The notes below the pieces were generated by a model. It was not told the origin of the DNA. It ran no database searches and saw nothing but the letters and a program-made list of their open reading frames with translations. The position numbers were made by a program, and so were the translations under genes. Shown one piece after another: positions 11,383 to 20,654 of a stretch of DNA of 64,000 nucleotides (the stretch's first letter is position 1; every line of letters begins with the position of its first letter). This DNA is from an uncultured archaeon. Its GTDB lineage: Archaea > Thermoproteota > Nitrososphaeria_A > Caldarchaeales > Wolframiiraptoraceae. The stretch is from assembly GCA_938083505.1 (NCBI GenBank), contig CALKCF010000004.1, positions 93,630 through 157,629 on the forward strand. The letters are read 5' to 3'.

Positions 11383-12168
11383 TTACTGAAAAATTTCCAT
11401 GAGTTCTTTCAGTAGTTTATCATTAGCAGCAGCAACGTAGCTTATGTCTCCTTTATAGAGTAGGTCTAAGTTTTTCAACGACCCATCCAAACTCTCCACA
11501 ACACCGCCTGCCTGCATCACTATATACGCCGCAGCTGCCATATCAACGACCCTCACACCCTCCAGAGCAAGGAAGCAATCTAACCTTCCGCAACTTACGT
11601 ATGCGGTCTCAAGGGCTGCGGAACCCATGGACCTCGTATAACGAGCCCTTGAGATCACGTGTTCAGCAAACATCGATAGCTTTTCATTATGCTTGAAAAC
11701 CTTTAGGTCTAATGAAACTATGGCTTCATTCAATGAAGTTGTGTTTGACGGTCTGACCAGCTTATCGTTTATATATGCACCTCTTTTGTCTGCTATGATA
11801 ACCTCGCCGTTAACTAAGTTGATTATGCCGGCAGCGATTATGTCCGAAAACTTCTTTCCCTTAGAGATTGCTATGGCCGCGGAGTAAAAAGGCAAGTCTT
11901 GCTTCAGGTTTACTGTTCCATCCACTGGGTCCACGATAGCTAAGTACTCAGAATTGTCCACGTCGCCGAGGAGTCCTGTTTCCTCACTAATTATTGAGAT
12001 GTTTTGTATAGCGCTCTTTAACACATCGATTATAGCTTTTTCAGAGGCGACATCCGCCACAGTAGATATATCACCGAAAGCACCAGCGTTTAGCTCACGT
12101 CCTTTGTCTTCTAGGTTATTTACTGTTACCCTTGCCGCCTCTAGTGCTTTTTTTATTATTAACTCCAA
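11383..12168 (-). CDS. Inositol monophosphatase / fructose-1,6-bisphosphatase family
   Basis: SEE, DPVDGTVN, RSMGSAAL, VDMAAA motifs. Confidence 0.9.
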   Translation of the reverse strand: MELIIKKALEAARVTVNNLEDKGRELNAGAFGDISTVADVASEKAIIDVLKSAIQNISIISEETGLLGDVDNSEYLAIVDPVDGTVNLKQDLPFYSAAIAISKGKKFSDIIAAGIINLVNGEVIIADKRGAYINDKLVRPSNTTSLNEAIVSLDLKVFKHNEKLSMFAEHVISRARYTRSMGSAALETAYVSCGRLDCFLALEGVRVVDMAAAAYIVMQAGGVVESLDGSLKNLDLLYKGDISYVAAANDKLLKELMEIFQ

Positions 12169-12182
12169 GTTAGGTCTTTTTC

Positions 12183-13190
12183 CTAAATCACTTTGACTTT
12201 ATCGAGAGGTCTGATTTTCATAACTTCTGTGTTGAACAGTGAGAGCGGGGGCTCACCTTTCAGGACCTTAACGACATTCAACGCACCCGTCTCTGCCATC
12301 GCATACCTTGCTTCATACGAAGCATTACCTATGTGGGGCGTTAAGACCACGTTTGGAAGTGTCAGTAATGGACTATCCATGGGTAGCGGTTCGACCTCGA
12401 AGACGTCAAGCCCTGCCCCAGCTATCCAGCCTTCTTTTAAAGCCTTTATCAATGCTTTCTCGTCCACAACAGGCCCTCTTGAAGTATTTATTAGGAATGC
12501 TGTCTTTTTCATCATCTTAAGCCTTTCTTCATTTATCAGATGGTATGTATCTTTGGATAGAAATACATGTATGGAAACAAAATCTGACGTTTTTAGAAGC
12601 TCCTCAAGGTTAACAAACCTTATTCCGAGCTCCTCCTCAGCCTTCTGATTCCTTATAATGTCGTAGTAGATTAGGTTCATGCCGAACGCCTTTGCTCTTA
12701 CGGCCGTCGCATAACCTATCTTACCAAGTCCAATTATGCCCAATGTTTTATCCTTAAGTTCTGTTCCCAACATCATGAAGGGTGTCCATGCAATTTTCCA
12801 CTTTCCCTCTCTTATGTATCTGTCACCTTCAACTATTCTCCTAGCAACTGCAAGCATAAGACCTATGGCCACTTCAGATACGGGCTCAGATGCTGCTGGA
12901 GAATTTGTAACATATATTCCCTTAGACGTAGCGTAAGCTACGTCTATATGATCAACACCTGCTGTAATTGTGCCTATAATTCTGAGGTCTGGTGCAGCAT
13001 CTATCACCTCTTTATCTACTTTAGCTGTTAGGTGACAGAGTATGGCTTGGACATCTTTTACACTTTTAACGAACTCATCATGCGGTATCGGCTCATCCTT
13101 TTCTCTGTAGATCACTTCGCACTCTTTTTTCAGAACTTCTATACCTGACTCCGGTATCCTGTTGGTTACGAATACTTTAGGTTTCATCAT
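12183..13190 (-). CDS. gyaR: Glyoxylate reductase (D-2-hydroxyacid dehydrogenase)
   Basis: GIIGLGKIG, INTSRGPVVD, GLDVFEVEP, TPHIG. Confidence 0.85.
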   Translation of the reverse strand: MMKPKVFVTNRIPESGIEVLKKECEVIYREKDEPIPHDEFVKSVKDVQAILCHLTAKVDKEVIDAAPDLRIIGTITAGVDHIDVAYATSKGIYVTNSPAASEPVSEVAIGLMLAVARRIVEGDRYIREGKWKIAWTPFMMLGTELKDKTLGIIGLGKIGYATAVRAKAFGMNLIYYDIIRNQKAEEELGIRFVNLEELLKTSDFVSIHVFLSKDTYHLINEERLKMMKKTAFLINTSRGPVVDEKALIKALKEGWIAGAGLDVFEVEPLPMDSPLLTLPNVVLTPHIGNASYEARYAMAETGALNVVKVLKGEPPLSLFNTEVMKIRPLDKVKVI

Positions 13191-13224: not shown

Positions 13225-13491
13225 TCACCTTCGCTTCTGTTTTAAGATCTTTTCTACAGTTTTCGAAAGTTCTGGCCATTTTTTTCTGACTTCCGCCTCA
13301 ATTATTTTAGCTATTTCGTCGCTTATGCTGTAGCGTGGTAGTAAGCTTTTCCTGTAGTTGAATATTGCCGCCGAGAGCGGAGAGTAGAAGGTAAGCCTTG
13401 GTTGTTTTACGGCTAGCTTTATTGCCTCTGTTAAGAATTTCTTGTTTATCTTCTCCTGTTTTTTGTTTGAAGGGGTTTGTTTTATTTTCAT
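13225..13491 (-). CDS. SegB-like ribbon-helix-helix DNA-binding protein
   Basis: Basic 88-aa protein; pattern KxP..S..Y..P..S..E..P.L..EKI.K matches my recollection of Saccharolobus SegB (SSO0035). Confidence 0.65.
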   Translation of the reverse strand: MKIKQTPSNKKQEKINKKFLTEAIKLAVKQPRLTFYSPLSAAIFNYRKSLLPRYSISDEIAKIIEAEVRKKWPELSKTVEKILKQKRR

Positions 13492-13521
13492 ACTTTCATC
13501 GACTTTTGAAAATTTATGAAA

Positions 13522-13850
13522 GTTATAAGGTTTACCTTTTATGTTTTAAGGTAAACCTAACAATTCGATAACTATTGCAATTCGATCGTGAACGAATAAG
13601 GTGAAGCAGTTTAATTCAATATAAAATGAATTAATACTCTACCAAACACCTGAGAGGTTATAAAGCCCCCTCGAAAAACCCTATTTTTCGCGTTTTCGGC
13701 AGGATTTCTCATAAGAATCGGTTGGGGAATCGTGTATTTGTAAAAATAAGTCATTATTCAATGACTTAGCGTGGAAGAGGTTTTGTTCTTATTACTTGAT
13801 GAATTTTCATCAAAGGTTTACCTAAAAAGGTAGAAGGTTTACCTTATAAC
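13522..13850. repeat. 37-bp imperfect inverted arms (13522-13558 and 13814-13850), each with two AGGTWWACCT palindromic boxes 21 bp apart
   Basis: Boxes at 13528, 13549, 13814 and 13835; arms are 31/37 identical as reverse complements; AT-rich interior. Confidence 0.85.
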
Positions 13851-15119
13851 AATTTCGCGCCGTTCAGCACCTATTGATACATACTTGATAGGACAAACCA
13901 AAAGCTTTTCCAGAAATTCAATGTAGTCCCTCAATTGCTTTGGAAGAGCATCGAAATTTCCCTTCAGCGCTTCGACCTTTTCCTTTTCCGAAAGTTCCCT
14001 CCACCCCTCCAGCTCGACATACACGGGTTTACACTTTTCCAGAACATGGAGCGAGCTGGGGAAGGTTTTAACCTCTTGACCGTTAACCTCATAAGCCAAG
14101 CAAACCTTGACTGGGTCTATATTCGTAAGACAGTCTACTTTCGTCACAGCCACCGATGTAACACCGTTTAGCATTATTGAATACCTTACGGCTACTGCAT
14201 CGAACCAGCCAACCCTTCTGGGCCTACCGGTTGTTGTTCCGTACTCTTTCCCTTTCTCTCTTACTATCGAAGCTACGGGCTCTTCCATCTCTGTCGGAAA
14301 CGGACCTTTACCGACTCTTGTTGTGTATGCTTTAGTAACGCCTATGATCTCGTCAACCCTTTTTGGACCTATGCCCACGCTATTACATGCAGCTCCTGCT
14401 GTTGTGTTTGAAGATGTAACGAAAGGATAGGTTCCGTGATCTATGTCCAATAGCGTTCCTTGGGCTCCTTCTAGTATGACAAAACCTCCCTTGTCTAGCG
14501 TCTCATTTACGAGGCGTGCCACGTCCCCAACATATTTTCCTAACTTTGAGGCAACCTCGTGGAGAAACTGGGTCACATGTTCAACGTCCAGCTCTACCTT
14601 TATATTGTAGACATCTGATAAGAGGGCTTTTGTCATGGTTATGCTTTTCTCAAGTCTGGACCTTATGGACTCTATCTCTACCAAATCAGAGAACCTTATG
14701 CCAACCCTTGCAGACTTATAGGTATAGGTTGGACCTATGCCCATTCTAGTCGTTCCAACACCCTTACCGGACGACTCTTCAGCCTCATCCAGCATCTTGT
14801 GTATGTCCAACACTATATGCGCTTTGCCGTCTATTGTTAGCTTCGGTTGTATACCTTCTCTGTTCAATGATTCCAGTTCCTTGAGGAGCTTTACAGGATC
14901 TATTACCATGCCCGAGGCAAGGCAGACGTGCTTACCCCTAAGTGCTGCAACAGGTAGATGATGAAATCTGTAAATCTTCCCATTAAGGACGACTGTATGG
15001 CCCGCGTTAGCACCGCCTTGGTATCTCACCGCCAAATCTGCGTTTTCTGATATAAAGTCCACGATCTTGCCTTTACCCTCATCGCCCCATTGGAGACCGA
15101 CGATTACTACGGCTGGCAT
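13839..15119 (-). CDS. purA: Adenylosuccinate synthetase
   Basis: QWGDEGKGK, GGANAGHT, EGAQG, TTTGRPRR. Confidence 0.98.
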   Translation of the reverse strand: MPAVVIVGLQWGDEGKGKIVDFISENADLAVRYQGGANAGHTVVLNGKIYRFHHLPVAALRGKHVCLASGMVIDPVKLLKELESLNREGIQPKLTIDGKAHIVLDIHKMLDEAEESSGKGVGTTRMGIGPTYTYKSARVGIRFSDLVEIESIRSRLEKSITMTKALLSDVYNIKVELDVEHVTQFLHEVASKLGKYVGDVARLVNETLDKGGFVILEGAQGTLLDIDHGTYPFVTSSNTTAGAACNSVGIGPKRVDEIIGVTKAYTTRVGKGPFPTEMEEPVASIVREKGKEYGTTTGRPRRVGWFDAVAVRYSIMLNGVTSVAVTKVDCLTNIDPVKVCLAYEVNGQEVKTFPSSLHVLEKCKPVYVELEGWRELSEKEKVEALKGNFDALPKQLRDYIEFLEKLLVCPIKYVSIGAERREIVIR

Positions 15120-15122
15120 CGC

Positions 15123-16577
15123 TCACTCTATTACCTCAACGTCATGAGGATAGCTTTCTTTTATACCGGCTTCAGATAGGCTGATAAACTTAGCATTATT
15201 CCAGAGTTCTCTTATGTTCCTTGCACCACAGTAACTCATGCCAGCTCTTAGAGCTGCTACAAGCTGGTTAAGGAGCTCTGAGGCCCTCCCCCTATAGGGT
15301 ACGTATGCCTCCACACCCTCAGATGTGTATGCATAATCTACTATAGAGTCCAAATCTATCTGCTTGTCTTCTTTGAAGTCTCTAGCTAGCATGGCATAGA
15401 ATGATGCCATGCCCCTATAGACCTTATACTTCTTGCCACCCCTAGATATCGTTGCACCAGGACTCTCATCCGTACCAGCAAGGAGGCTGCCTATCATCAC
15501 TGTTGATGCGCCTGCGGCAATCGCTTTGACAAGGTCACCGCTGTTACGTATACCGCCATCAGCTATTATAGGCACACCCCACTCGATAGATTTCTCGGCG
15601 CAGCTGAGTATTGCAGTAAGCTGCGGTACACCGACGCCGGTTACGATTCTCGTAGTGCACACAGTCCCAGGTCCTATCCCAACCTTGACAGCGTCGGCAC
15701 CAGCGGAAGCAAGGTCCTCAAAACCTTCAGGTGTAGCTACATTACCGGCAACCACTTGAATGTCACCGAAGGTTTCTTTAAGTTTCCTAACAGCCCTTAT
15801 GACTTCGTCTGTGTGACCGTGGGCAACATCGATGACTAAGGCATCTGCACTGGCATCCAGTAATACTTTTGCCCTCTCCAGGTAGCCTTCCCTTATTCCT
15901 ATTGCGGCGGCGACCAAAAGCCTACCCTTTTGATCTCTCGCGGCATTCGGATACATGCTCTTGATCATGATGTCTTTTGCTGTTACGAGACCGACTACTT
16001 TGTCCTCTTCATCAACAAGCGGTAACTTCTCAACTTTGTACTTCTTGAATATCTCTTTTGCCTCCTCTAGCGTTATCTTTCGGGTAGATACCACGAGTCT
16101 TTCTCTGGGCGTCATAACGTCTATTATAGGTTTTTCATAATTCTCCTCAAAGAGTATGTCGCGCTTCGTAACTAGGCCTTTGAGCTTGCCATCCTCTTCA
16201 ACAACCAAAAGCCCTCCTACGCCGTAGTTTTCCATGAGTTCCTTCGCTTTTCCGACTGTGCTTTTAAAGGGCAGCGTGTATGGTTTCTCTATTATGATAT
16301 TTTCGGCCCTCTTAACGCGCTGAACCTCTTGGGCTTGACGCTCGATGGACATGAATCTATGGATAACACCTATGCCTCCATGTCTTGCCATCGTAATTGC
16401 CATCTCAGATTCCGTAACGGTGTCCATCGCTGAAGAGACTATTGGTATATTCAGCCGTATCTTCTTCGTGAAGAAAGTTTCTATCGAAACCTCTTTTCTT
16501 GAATGTAGAGGGAATCTACGGGGCACGAGAAGGACGTCGTCGAAGGTTAAACCTCTCTCTATTTCCTTTACGACCAC
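15123..16577 (-). CDS. guaB: IMP dehydrogenase with CBS pair
   Basis: [30 protein letters not shown]. Confidence 0.98.
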
Positions 16578-16622
16578 TTAATCCCTTAGCCCACTGATTA
16601 TGTGGCTAAATTTAAAGATTAA

Positions 16623-17642
16623 CTAGGTCACGAGTTTCTCTAAGTCGGAAGTTTCATATGCGAGCCTTATCTCCCTAGCTATTCTTCTACCCATGCTCAT
16701 TTCCTCACCATATATTAAGTAGGAGTATGGCGAGCCGCTTATGAAGAGGTTTGTGCCAGCAACTATCCTAGCCGAGAACTCAAAAACAACCACATCATCT
16801 GGTGTTCTACAAGCAGCCTCTATACAAAAAGGTCCTATTATGCCAGGCGGCACGAGCCTTTTCGTAGCCTCAACAAACCTCTCAGCTATATCGAAAAATT
16901 TTTCCAAAATGGATTCCCTTAGGACCAGAGGTATGTTGCCCACGACTTCGTAAGTTGGTTGCATGTCAAGATTCAGTTGGTCTGATGCCGGTATCCTTCC
17001 TAAAGAATCGACATTTGTTTCATACCTCCTGTCAACACCAAGCAACTCCACCTCTTCTTTAAGGGGTGAATAGAAAAAGTGAGGATATACCGTTACGCCT
17101 ATTACGTACTCCTGTATGTAAAACTCACAGTTCGTTTTTACGCTCATTTTCGTCAGTTTTTTTATCAAATCCTCTCTTCCGCTTGCTAAGAAGTAACCCT
17201 TGCCTCCTTCTGCGCCTGGCAGCTTGACTATAACAGGGCAATCCACTTCATCTGGTGAGCTAAAACTCCTCGGCACCTTTATACCTGCCTCTTTAAGTAA
17301 CCTTTCTTTAAGTTCTCTGTCCGATTCCCAGAGTAGGAGTTCCCTGTTCCCAAAAATGGGGACCTTGAAATCCCTAATGAACTTACTAATATTAACATCC
17401 GATATTATCGTTCCATGGGGTACGAGTATACTGCCCATGTTCATTAAGGTCTTTTGTATATGTCCTCTTATCAGATCTTCCACATTGTCTACTAAGAGTA
17501 GCTCATCCGCTAACCTGAACCTCTCGTAGAATTTACGGCGACTCCTAGGGCATAGAAGTACTGTTTTAAGCCCCTCATCTTTAGCACCTTTTAGTATTTG
17601 AAGGGCTGAGTGTGAGCCATAGGTAGTGACGGATATGTTCAT
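16623..17642 (-). CDS. purP: PurP-family FAICAR synthetase (ATP-grasp)
   Basis: GSHSALQI, DRRYETNVD, IGPFCIE, FEFSARIVAGTN. Confidence 0.9.
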   Translation of the reverse strand: MNISVTTYGSHSALQILKGAKDEGLKTVLLCPRSRRKFYERFRLADELLLVDNVEDLIRGHIQKTLMNMGSILVPHGTIISDVNISKFIRDFKVPIFGNRELLLWESDRELKERLLKEAGIKVPRSFSSPDEVDCPVIVKLPGAEGGKGYFLASGREDLIKKLTKMSVKTNCEFYIQEYVIGVTVYPHFFYSPLKEEVELLGVDRRYETNVDSLGRIPASDQLNLDMQPTYEVVGNIPLVLRESILEKFFDIAERFVEATKRLVPPGIIGPFCIEAACRTPDDVVVFEFSARIVAGTNLFISGSPYSYLIYGEEMSMGRRIAREIRLAYETSDLEKLVT

Positions 17643-18745
17643 GTAACCACCTCTTTTAACCTATTCTGTTCCATTGCCCTCTTGAGCTCCATCGCTATCC
17701 TCCTACCGACGCCTATAACAAAACCATGGTAGTATTTTGAATAAGGGCTAGTCGTGGTTAGCATAGGGCTTCCCGGAACCCTTAATGAAACGTCAAAAAC
17801 TACAAAATCTAAATCCTTATTTATTGCGCCCTGGAGGGCGAACGGTCCTATTATACCTGGCGGATATTCTTCCTTTACGGTCTCTACAAACCTTTCACCA
17901 ACTTCCAAGACTTTCTCCAACAACGACTCCCTCACGGATGCTGGCTGATGACCTACTTCTATGTTCTGGAGTAGGATGTTAATCTCCAGTTGGTCCTTAG
18001 CAGGAAGGTTGACAAAGTCGTAGAGATTTGTCTGAAGTCTTCTATCTATGCCAAGAAACTCAAGGTTACTATCGATGGGTGAATAGAAGTAATTGAAATT
18101 GAAGAATGTGCCTATAACAAGTTCTTCTATCACAGCCTTAGATAACTCCTCTTCGGATATTAGACCCGCCTCAATCCTTTCTCGAACCTTTTGCCTATAT
18201 TCCGAGGGTGAGGAAGCAATAAAAAAGGCTCTCTCCACCTTCCTCTTAGCTTCCTGTACCTTCACCATCACGGGCCTATCTATTTCGTCAGGTGAGCTGA
18301 ACCTCATGGGCGTCCTTATGCCAGCCTTTGAGAGGAGATAGTACTGATTCTTTTCTGCCCACCTTTCTTCTGCCTTCAATAGGGCCCTATTACCGAAGAT
18401 TGGTACTAAGAATACGTTCTCTATACCCTCATAGGGCACATAGGTCGTAAAAGACCTATTTGGAACGAATATAGAGTTTGATGCCCTTAGCTCATTTATT
18501 ATATCTTTTCTCAGAACTTCGCTAAATTTGTTAACTATGAGTATCCTGTCAACTATTCTCTTAAAGTGCACATAGGCCCTCATCCTGTCTTTTTGACAAA
18601 CAGCCATCGTCGAAAGCCCTTCGTCCTTTGCACCATCAAAGACTTCTAAGGCCGAGTGACTACCTATGCAGCTAACAGATAACGCTCTCGTATTATAACT
18701 CTCTATAAGCTCTGCTATCTGTGACCTCTCGATCAAACTCAGCAC
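17639..18745 (-). CDS. PurP-like paralog (ATP-grasp)
   Basis: GSHSALEV, ERAFF, DRRLQTN, IGPFALQ. Confidence 0.9.
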   Translation of the reverse strand: MLSLIERSQIAELIESYNTRALSVSCIGSHSALEVFDGAKDEGLSTMAVCQKDRMRAYVHFKRIVDRILIVNKFSEVLRKDIINELRASNSIFVPNRSFTTYVPYEGIENVFLVPIFGNRALLKAEERWAEKNQYYLLSKAGIRTPMRFSSPDEIDRPVMVKVQEAKRKVERAFFIASSPSEYRQKVRERIEAGLISEEELSKAVIEELVIGTFFNFNYFYSPIDSNLEFLGIDRRLQTNLYDFVNLPAKDQLEINILLQNIEVGHQPASVRESLLEKVLEVGERFVETVKEEYPPGIIGPFALQGAINKDLDFVVFDVSLRVPGSPMLTTTSPYSKYYHGFVIGVGRRIAMELKRAMEQNRLKEVVT

Positions 18746-18806
18746 CTACACAGGACCTCAGTATGTTGAAGATAAAAAATTTTTAAGGATTAAAAATAAA
18801 GAATTT

Positions 18807-19277
18807 TTAGACACCTTCCCGGACCACTTCAGTTCTGACCATGATGGACGATCTGTCAGCAAAGTGCTTTGTGTATCCCTTCGGGGCTAACCCTTTAACT
18901 ATATATTCAAAGGCTTTCTCAGGCTGACTTTCACGACCGCAGGTATAAACATCAACGGTTGCATAGTGGTAGGCGGGCCATGTATGTACTGCAACATGAC
19001 TTTCTGTAACCAGAGCTATTACCGATATACCGCCTTTTTTGCTAAAGAACTTCCAAGATTTAAGCTCAACTAAATGCATATTCGCTATCTTAACAGCATC
19101 CCTTACCAACTTTCTCAGATAGCCCTCATTAGCTATCAGACGAACGTCGCACTCATAGAGATTTCCATAAACGTGCTTGCCTACTATGTTATCCTCGCCT
19201 TCCTTGAATGTAGTCAACTTGTAGTTACTCAACATTTTTTGTCTATTTGCTCTACAAACTAAATTATAAATGTTCAC
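18807..19277 (-). CDS. Pyruvoyl-dependent SpeD-fold decarboxylase, probably arginine decarboxylase
   Basis: ESH self-cleavage motif, HTWP, DVYTCG; GKHVYGNLY and KKGG resemble the crenarchaeal ArgDC branch; true start probably downstream of 19277. Confidence 0.85.
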   Translation of the reverse strand: MNIYNLVCRANRQKMLSNYKLTTFKEGEDNIVGKHVYGNLYECDVRLIANEGYLRKLVRDAVKIANMHLVELKSWKFFSKKGGISVIALVTESHVAVHTWPAYHYATVDVYTCGRESQPEKAFEYIVKGLAPKGYTKHFADRSSIMVRTEVVREGV

Positions 19278-19586: not shown

Positions 19587-20654
19587 TTGCCAACAGAGAA
19601 AGAAATCATTCAAATGCTTAGGGGCGTTATCGACCCAGAACTCGGTGTTGACATAGTCTCCTTGGGAATGATAAAAGACGTTAAAATAGAAAACAGCACA
19701 GTAAGAGTGACGCTGGAGCTGACGACGCCAGCTTGTCCGTTTCGTAACCAGCTAAAGGAGAAAGTCGAGAATGTTTTAAAGAGATTGACTGAAGTCTCCG
19801 AGGTCAAAGTGGATGTAGTTGCCCGCGTCGCCCCTTCAAGGATTATTAAGGATAATCCTATTCCATATGTAAAGAATATAATCGCAATCGCTAGTGGCAA
19901 GGGTGGTGTCGGCAAATCTACAGTTGCCGTAAACGTTGGCTTGGCCTTAAGCGAGTCTGGCGCAAGCGTAGGCATACTCGACGCAGACATATATGGGCCC
20001 ACAATACCTAAAATCCTTAATATTGAAATAAGCCCTACCAGTGCTGACAATAAAATATTGCCAGCAATAGCCTATAAAGGTATTAAGGTAATGTCTATAG
20101 GCTTCCTTCTACAAGATGAAGAGCCTGTGATATGGCGGGGACCGCTCGTGGCAAACACCATCAAACAGTTCTTGAGTGAGGTGGAGTGGGGCGAGCTCGA
20201 CTATCTCATAGTGGACCTTCCGCCGGGTACTGGAGATGCCTCGCTAACGCTAGCGCAGAGCATCCCCCTAACCGGAGTTGTCATAGTTAGCACACCCCAA
20301 GATGCCGCACTGAGGATAGCTATGAAGGCTCTGAATATGTTTAGAAGACTAAAAGTTGAAATAATAGGCATGGTTGAAAATATGAGCTACTTCATTTGTC
20401 CTAACTGCGGTTATGTTTCCGAAATATTCAGCAGGGGTAATGTCAAGGCTGTTTGTGAGAGGTTGGGAATAAAGTTTCTGGGAGAGGTGCCGCTAAGTCC
20501 AGACATAAGGATTAATGGTGACCTCGGGAAGCCGGTCGTGATTGCGGCACCGAAATCCGGATCAGCGGAAGCGTTCAGAAGGATAGCTTATTCGATAGCT
20601 AGTAGTGTTTCGGTTATAGCCTATAAGAGGAAAGAGACGAGTATGGGGGCTTGA
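19587..20654 (+). CDS. Mrp/Nbp35/ApbC Fe-S carrier ATPase with N-terminal DUF59 domain
   Basis: DPELG, LTTPACP, GKGGVGKS, WRGP, DLPPGTGD, CPNC. Confidence 0.95.
   Translation: MPTEKEIIQMLRGVIDPELGVDIVSLGMIKDVKIENSTVRVTLELTTPACPFRNQLKEKVENVLKRLTEVSEVKVDVVARVAPSRIIKDNPIPYVKNIIAIASGKGGVGKSTVAVNVGLALSESGASVGILDADIYGPTIPKILNIEISPTSADNKILPAIAYKGIKVMSIGFLLQDEEPVIWRGPLVANTIKQFLSEVEWGELDYLIVDLPPGTGDASLTLAQSIPLTGVVIVSTPQDAALRIAMKALNMFRRLKVEIIGMVENMSYFICPNCGYVSEIFSRGNVKAVCERLGIKFLGEVPLSPDIRINGDLGKPVVIAAPKSGSAEAFRRIAYSIASSVSVIAYKRKETSMGA

Follow-up and report, generated by a model that had tools for sequence, protein, structure and literature searches.

To our knowledge, SegAB is the only chromosome-partition machine that has been described in archaea. 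Its DNA-binding half SegB, known from Saccharolobus solfataricus (SSO0035; structures 7DUV and 7DV2), has a ribbon-helix-helix (RHH) core, an additional C-terminal helix that terminates in YP-x-L, and an unstructured N-terminal tail (residues 1-21) that contacts SegA and activates its ATPase; its palindromic sites are clustered just upstream of its own gene, and tens of further sites, mostly intragenic, are found on the chromosome. Atomic force microscopy has been reported to show that SegB by itself, independently of SegA, can compact DNA and draw remote sites into loops (PMC12284271). The type Ib RHH proteins ParG of TP228 and omega of pSM19035 are likewise small dimers on arrays of short repeats, which serve as centromere and as own operator; they need a ParA ATPase (ParF and delta, respectively), which acts via a flexible N-terminal tail. 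A third group, aCcr1 of Sulfolobales and CdrS of Haloarchaea, comprises small stand-alone RHH proteins of about 50-60 amino acids (aa) that work as site-specific regulators without an ATPase. Here we describe a relative of SegB encoded in a 64,000-nucleotide stretch of DNA from an uncultured archaeon of the order Caldarchaeales, formerly Aigarchaeota (GenBank assembly GCA_938083505.1, contig CALKCF010000004.1, positions 93,630 to 157,629; the whole stretch is called the window below). The segB-like gene (13225-13491, minus strand) encodes an 88-aa basic RHH protein of a Caldarchaeales clade without SegA, and it lies next to an AT-rich island that is bounded by two pairs of the palindromic box AGGTWWACCT. 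The host genome has 1.15 Mb in 10 contigs and is 98.5% complete; its closest named kin are Candidatus Terraquivivens species. Within Thermoproteota, SegB is confined to Sulfolobaceae according to a survey (bioRxiv 10.1101/2025.04.15.649018), and our literature search found no report that places SegB in Caldarchaeales or Aigarchaeota.

The 88-aa protein has a pI of 10.35 (23 K+R versus 8 D+E). No Pfam or NCBIfam family was found for it, and none for bona fide SegB either. A search of 1.8 billion representatives retrieved 275 relatives. Two alignments were used: A1, a profile of 19 orthologues, and A2, an alignment of 20 of the 275 relatives, which are metagenomic. When A1 was run against 177,635 PDB sequences the sole match was SegB (7duv/7dv2, E 4.4e-7), aligned without a gap over 74 residues; this bears out the gapless alignment to the SegB core that had been claimed when the DNA was first read without database searches (the sequence-only reading). 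An hhalign comparison of A1 with a Sulfolobaceae SegB taken from its segAB operon gave 93%; the identity to SegB is about 20%. The homology chain to SegB is firm because A1 and A2 align at 99.6% (hhalign, E 2e-24, 36% identity over 78 columns) and A2 in turn matches SegB with an E of 2.5e-16. No sequence similarity to ParG or omega was detected, and the aCcr1 and CdrS proteins differ in having no SegB-type third helix and in binding other motifs.

The predicted fold points the same way. A Foldseek search with an AlphaFold (AF2) model built from an 84-row alignment (pLDDT 85, superseding an earlier 19-sequence model with pLDDT 67 and weak matches) placed 7duv on top with a probability of 0.99 (TM 0.53/0.64), the runner-up being at 0.05, so that the structural comparison suggested in the sequence-only reading returned SegB as best match. 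An independent fold aligner (VIA) also ranked SegB first of 48,161 chains (Z 5.4, root-mean-square deviation 1.5 A over 55 residues), followed by the RHH proteins omega (Z 3.5), ParD, PrpA, PutA and other repressors or antitoxins. The modest Z is to be expected for the monomer of a fold that forms only as a dimer, and in the model the ribbon came out as coil. Judged from the alignments and the model, the 88-aa protein is a true relative of SegB, with the same RHH core and the extra C-terminal helix ending in YP-x-L. Lys52 of SegB enters the major groove and is essential for binding, and the residue, Lys in crenarchaea, is replaced by Arg in euryarchaeal SegB, as described in the structural work (PMC8682754). 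The basic residue at this position is kept here as Arg32, which is invariant in the 19 orthologues, and across the clade; the beta-strand motif PR-x-x-FYSP is likewise invariant. Other base contacts of SegB are changed (Trp56 to Tyr and Lys75 to Ser), which fits with a different DNA word: AGGTWWACCT at this locus versus TCTAGA-S-TCTAGA in Sulfolobus. The Sulfolobus SegB word TCTAGASTCTAGA was also looked for; it occurs at chance level in the window and not near the segB-like gene.

The 64-kb window contains four copies of AGGTWWACCT and no more (starts 13528, 13549, 13814 and 13835), all of them within 330 bp upstream of the segB-like gene, versus 0.33 occurrences expected by chance (four or more in 0/100 shuffles). 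The boxes are part of a pair of inverted arms, 13522-13558 and 13814-13850, of 37 nt each, which are complementary at 31/37 positions (84%) and stand 255 nt apart. From the start of the segB-like gene to the stop of purA, the non-coding gap measures 347 bp. The G+C content of the 255-nt spacer is 34.1% versus 43.8% for the window, among the lowest 1.1% of 255-nt windows. Box 1 (AGGTTTACCT, 13528-13537) is promoter-proximal: it abuts TTATAA (13523-13528, minus strand), the probable TATA box of the segB-like gene 30-36 nt ahead of its ATG, and occupies the position of the transcription factor B recognition element (BRE). Box 2 (AGGTAAACCT, 13549-13558) lies 21 bp from box 1 and is weaker in other species of the genus (GGTTTACCA, GATTTACCA). 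The distal pair has the same 21-bp spacing and is invariant in the genus; it consists of box 3 (AGGTTTACCT, 13814-13823) and box 4 (AGGTTTACCT, 13835-13844), the latter holding the purA stop codon TAA at 13839-13841. Midway between them is AGGTAG (13828-13833; AGGTAA in other species), which at about one helical turn from either box may be an extra half-site. The layout given in the sequence-only reading, namely a basic 88-aa open reading frame (ORF) next to AT-rich DNA with 37-bp inverted arms, two boxes 21 bp apart in each arm, a first box abutting TTATAA and a last one overlapping the purA stop, was recovered in full on recomputation and exact word search.

The boxes were then followed in seven genomes of the genus and in 54 Caldarchaeales loci. 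Both pairs of boxes are invariant throughout these seven species, and so is the proximal block AAGGTAAACCTTATAACTTTCA with TTATAA, although the spacer has diverged with many indels. The distance between distal and proximal pair is 286, 289, 278, 286, 287, 288 and 288 bp; this near-constancy weakly fits a constraint on length or phase, the genomes being close kin. Across the order, GGTWWACC has a density of 2.07/kb in the 520 nt upstream of the 54 orthologues versus 0.08/kb in the rest of the loci, a 25-fold enrichment, and AAGGTAAA is present in 46 of the 54 upstream regions versus 3 of 54 controls. In other families, too, the upstream region is bracketed by perfect 10-mers; their separation is 388 bp in G038, 373 bp for G027 and 274 bp for G025, and each of these genomes has just 6-10 perfect copies in total. 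The combination of a promoter-proximal and a far box is found in three families of the order, with a relaxed form in the fourth. The far box marks the outer edge of the island whatever the neighbour is: purA, a divergent mrp gene (Geocrenenecus and others) or small ORFs (Caldarchaeum and Calditenuis). In genera with mrp upstream, one box stands before and one after the TATA-like element, and in family f3, where the island is downstream of the gene, it again ends in a far box pair 21 bp apart. A block of genes, purA-guaB-purP-purP-speH (13839-19277), separates the segB-like gene and mrp in the host genus. The far boxes remained with the segB-like gene despite this purine block, and the purA stop is now inside box 4. 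On this comparative evidence the boxes belong to the segB-like gene, and since those nearest to it lie on its core promoter, we infer autoregulation. Two outcomes that the sequence-only reading had named as speaking against it, a lack of SegB or RHH likeness and a lack of boxes beside orthologues, were both looked for and neither was seen. As a separate observation, a 50-aa cdrS-like RHH gene (G000:C6:35251-35403), which ends 4 nt before ftsZ, holds a perfect AGGTTTACCT box (C6:35360); six of the seven genomes from the genus retain this box, and it is not found in other genera, where the codons differ.

The gene belongs to a clade without SegA. A segB-like gene was found in 39 of 41 relatives, nearly always as a single copy, and in a profile search in 41 of 42 genomes of the order, representing all four families. 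Elsewhere in the phylum the profile matched only three genomes of Sulfolobaceae type, weakly, and 0 of about 250 other genomes. In a tree of 168 family members the Caldarchaeales proteins form one branch of 26 rows with an SH-like support of 85. None of these 26 rows has an FDxLL-type or LG[KR]GLDALI-type peptide; they have merely a short Lys/Arg-rich tail, so that the absence of a SegB-type extreme N-terminus, remarked on in the sequence-only reading for the single protein, extends to the whole clade. Outside the Caldarchaeales branch an N-terminal peptide is present in most members: 49-57 of 150 carry LG[KR]G[LIV]xA[LI][FLI] and others carry an FDHLLK-type peptide, as in Sulfolobaceae. We take the former to resemble the ParA-activating N-terminus of bacterial ParB; no statement of this likeness was found by term searches in passages of the SegB literature. 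The metagenomic relatives in A2 are the closest ones outside the order, and both their peptide (LG[KR]GLDALI or FDHLLK) and their upstream SegA-like gene are missing here. In 69 of 80 metagenomic loci of peptide-bearing relatives a SegA-like gene is located directly upstream on the same strand, the remaining 11 having at most 630 nt of upstream sequence, which agrees with the strict segA-segB synteny described in a survey (PMC12284271), where segA directly precedes segB and usually overlaps it. Tandem forms with two SegB-like RHH cores per chain were also noticed (P0010, P0015, P0016, P0019, P0020, P0022, P0026 and P0030); they are possibly single-chain dimers, and some have no N-terminal peptide.

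No SegA-like gene was detected within 4 kb in any of 57 Caldarchaeales loci. The host genome, too, yielded no SegA when it was searched with PF13614, PF01656 or a Sulfolobaceae SegA protein; as a control, SegA itself scores 1e-27 on PF13614. The sequence-only reading had allowed for a SegA encoded elsewhere, and this option was dropped since nothing was found in the 98.5%-complete genome, the window or the 57 related loci. Its statement that the window contains no parA or segA holds for segA; a gene of the ParA superfamily is present, however, the sole one near the locus, and codes for an Mrp/ApbC-type P-loop ATPase of the Fe-S carrier kind (19587-20654, plus strand; PF10609 at 3e-99, with PF01883). 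This gene is the genome's best match to the SegA query, with an E of only 0.004. A 283-aa ParA/MinD-like protein is encoded elsewhere in the genome (G000:C3:388-1236, minus strand); it has a degenerate Walker A motif, RGGSGTS for KGGxGK[ST], and is probably accessory or decaying. As a partner it was rejected, being present in just 10 of 41 relatives versus a universal segB-like gene.

Between the box pairs we observed a second conserved feature, a single-copy non-coding element of 84 nt (13705-13788, minus strand, core 13717-13726), defined by a motif and by a covariance model (R1). It consists of a covarying dyad, AATYC-N6-10-GRATT, followed by ..TCCAAnTGTnCGA-N5-CCAACCGATTyG (consensus ..CGA-N5-CCAACCGATTyG). 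The motif was found in 40 of the 54 loci, and with R1 each of 37 out of 41 relatives gave a single strong hit; the copy is unique in the host genome. The element is conserved far beyond what is usual for non-coding DNA at such a divergence, the neighbouring protein being 40-55% identical. The covariation score of the dyad is 0.248 versus 0.132 in shuffled alignments (0/500) and far lower in slid controls, and 73% of cells pair versus 66% in shuffles (0/500 reached this value). The element adjoins the segB-like gene wherever the gene was found, and in G035, where the gene was not found, there is a copy at a contig end; an apparently unlinked copy in G019 was traced to a contig break. Its placement changes between families: upstream in the same orientation (f1, f4), upstream and inverted (f2), or directly downstream (f3). 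On either side of the gene and in either orientation, it lies between the proximal and the far boxes.

We consider it fairly probable that the 88-aa protein acts as a SegB-family member without need of SegA, binding its own boxes, regulating its own promoter and linking the two box pairs over the conserved island. At the AGGTWWACCT boxes its dimers would place their paired beta-strands (PR-x-x-FYSP, with Arg32) in the major groove. The proximal boxes lie on and just upstream of the BRE and TATA box, and their occupancy would set the level of the protein itself, the likeliest sign being autorepression with TFB and TBP blocked. Dimer-dimer contacts, a predicted counterpart of the dimer-of-dimers bridging by SegB in vitro, would connect the proximal pair with the distal one, which lies 286 bp off and whose boxes are likewise two helical turns apart, and the resulting small loop would enclose the AT-rich island with its single-copy element. 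Such bridging is mechanistically plausible because compaction and looping by SegB are themselves SegA-independent (PMC12284271). The clustering of palindromic sites just upstream of the own gene is shared with SegB. The protein most probably works like the stand-alone regulators aCcr1 and CdrS; unlike the type Ib proteins, it has neither an ATPase nor their tail motif.

Several observations weigh against this reading or show that it is incomplete. Box sequences differ from genus to genus (GGTAAACC, GGTAAAAC, GGTAAAAG) although the beta-strand is nearly constant, and the phase of the predicted loop is only loosely kept (0.24-0.52 turn across the seven related genomes). Further AGGTWWACCT pairs in the genome, which the sequence-only reading had suggested looking for, were searched and none was found: nine other perfect boxes occur in the 1.15 Mb, among them the one in the cdrS-like gene, all of them single and close in number to the roughly 6 expected from scaled window shuffles. 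In this perfect-box search neither a regulon nor a chromosome-wide set of boxes was visible. Box counts in 40 relatives are erratic (2-28) and show no clear excess, the reversed-pattern control being poor. SegB has tens of chromosomal sites; here scattered sites are not detectable by a count of perfect boxes, and degenerate ones would be unrecognisable from the sequence. Autoregulation also leaves the single-copy element unexplained. For a gene that almost all genomes of the order retain in one copy, self-regulation is unlikely to be the sole role, so that part of the function is missing from the account.

One alternative is a centromere-like or landmark module without ParA, in which the protein would condense one chromosomal site and hand it to a partner such as a membrane tether, the division machinery or another motor, autoregulation being a by-product as in plasmid par operons. 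The boxes and the element together might then form a motor-independent landmark (centromere-like, origin-linked or of the resolution type) that organises or segregates the chromosome by bridging, by tethering or through a partner. We regard both the module and this broader form of it as tentative possibilities. The other family members are the centromere-binding partners of SegA, the gene is near-universal and in single copy in the order, and the element, with one copy per genome, invariably accompanies the gene and sits between proximal and far boxes, be it upstream, inverted or downstream; the SegA-independent compaction and bridging by SegB (PMC12284271) would suit such a role. Counting against it, no SegA or ParA partner was found, the ATPase-activating N-terminal peptide has been lost, there are no further box clusters on the chromosome, and no partner gene is consistently adjacent. 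Another alternative is a replication origin, a second one, in the AT-rich island, marked or organised by the SegB-like protein, and this we think very unlikely. Inverted arms do flank DNA within the lowest 1% or so of G+C content, the island has a single-copy element and several dyads, and the genome has two Orc1/Cdc6 genes with origin recognition box (ORB) repeats beside just one of them. However, contig C3 bears a canonical origin signature ahead of orc1/cdc6: inverted repeats of the ORB type, 28 nt long (L093 228-255 and 406-433; TCCA..GAAA..GGGGT; ..TCCATAAGAAATGTAGGGGTGT) and 89% complementary, enclose about 150 nt of AT-rich DNA. ORB-type repeats are absent both beside the second orc1/cdc6 gene (L094) and from the island, and in the host genome and five few-contig relatives the segB-like gene has no orc1/cdc6 gene nearby. 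The GC skew of contig C4 was uninformative.

Other explanations stay closer to gene expression or to the missing ATPase. The protein could be an ordinary local transcription factor for the dehydrogenase, inositol-monophosphatase-family, purA or mrp genes, its kinship with SegB then going back only to a common origin of the DNA-binding domain. Most RHH proteins act as repressors, the fold search listed RHH repressors and antitoxins, the boxes are at promoter positions, and the order segB-like gene, (ghrA), suhB-like gene is kept in several families with gaps of 30-70 nt. We find this unlikely, as the far boxes stay in place while the upstream neighbour changes between purA, mrp and small ORFs, the 34-nt gap ahead of the dehydrogenase gene contains a separate TATA-like TTTATAT, some 25 nt from the ATG of that gene, and an island of 300-450 bp with a single-copy conserved element far exceeds the needs of a simple operator. 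If instead the element were a small RNA gene, the boxes would control both this RNA and the protein gene. Its single copy, its change of side and orientation in the manner of an independent gene, the covarying dyad, and a hairpin with a T-run about 40 nt past the core in the host genus would suit an RNA. The searches argue the other way: Rfam gave no match in the window region (E up to 10, beyond noise) nor in 18 related loci, the element has no tRNA match, and the RNase P RNA and signal recognition particle RNA genes are located elsewhere. In the alignment of the genus, RNAalifold detected no stable structure common to the spacers beyond the short dyad, no TATA box is shared ahead of the element at a constant distance, there is no coding periodicity, and the most conserved part (CCAACCGATT) is unpaired and invariant, like a protein site; we thus give the RNA gene very little weight. 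The Mrp/ApbC-type P-loop protein, lastly, might take the place of SegA as partner ATPase. It belongs to the MinD/ParA/Mrp superfamily with a deviant Walker A motif and is the divergent neighbour of the segB-like gene in 12 of 57 loci, lying 6.1 kb off in the host genus. Yet its FeS_assembly_P domain and CxxC motif are typical of Fe-S carriers, the two genes are unlinked in three of the four families and linked only in part of one, and the far boxes were kept with the segB-like gene once purine genes intervened, all of which makes such a partnership highly improbable.

Returning to the SegA-independent SegB relative, its presence throughout the order extends the SegB family to the Aigarchaeota lineage and provides a natural case of separation of function, with the DNA-binding and bridging half of the machine present and the ATPase half gone. 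Possibly the single-copy element represents a chromosomal landmark of a new kind. The locus is compact and well defined, comprising an 88-aa protein, four boxes of 10 bp and a conserved element of 84 nt, and so lends itself to direct in vitro tests of binding, looping and autoregulation; the relatives Wolframiiraptor and Calditenuis have been reported as cultivated in the abstracts of two papers (PMC9246946, PMC12979851). The host genome has ESCRT-III (Snf7) homologues and an FtsZ-type tubulin (G000:C7:147551-148042, C3:177895-178308 and C6:34722-35204). With both ESCRT-III and FtsZ present, the published correlation between SegB and ESCRT-only division is not simply transferable to this lineage.

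Upstream of the island lies purA, encoding adenylosuccinate synthetase (13839-15119, minus strand; PF00709 at 9e-159), whose last codons and stop form part of the distal arm. On the other side, 34 nt downstream of the segB-like gene, is a D-2-hydroxyacid dehydrogenase gene (ghrA; 12183-13190, minus strand; PF02826/PF00389), followed by an inositol-monophosphatase-family gene (suhB-like; 11383-12168, minus strand; PF00459), a conserved downstream neighbour; this gene order is common to several families. A miniature inverted-repeat transposable element or other mobile element was considered for the 369-bp stretch and rejected, as the stretch is single copy in the genome and stands in the same place in all relatives. 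A small ORF within the island (13611-13754, 47 aa) is not conserved: its start codon is absent in relatives and the variation shows no 3-nt periodicity. A near-box inside the segB-like gene (13389-13398, AGGTAAGCCT), which codes for the beta-strand, is probably due to chance, its synonymous sites varying in relatives. The island also contains the palindrome TTAATTCA-N8-TGAATTAA (13611-13634), which is unique in the genome and has arms near-unchanged across the genus, and a third TGAATTA-type copy is found nearer to box 2. Palindromes of the TAATTC/GAATTA type (13611-13634 and 13563-13590) are kept in the genus and replaced by TAATCC/GGATTA in sister genera, with two or three per island, and they may be sites for a second dimeric factor.

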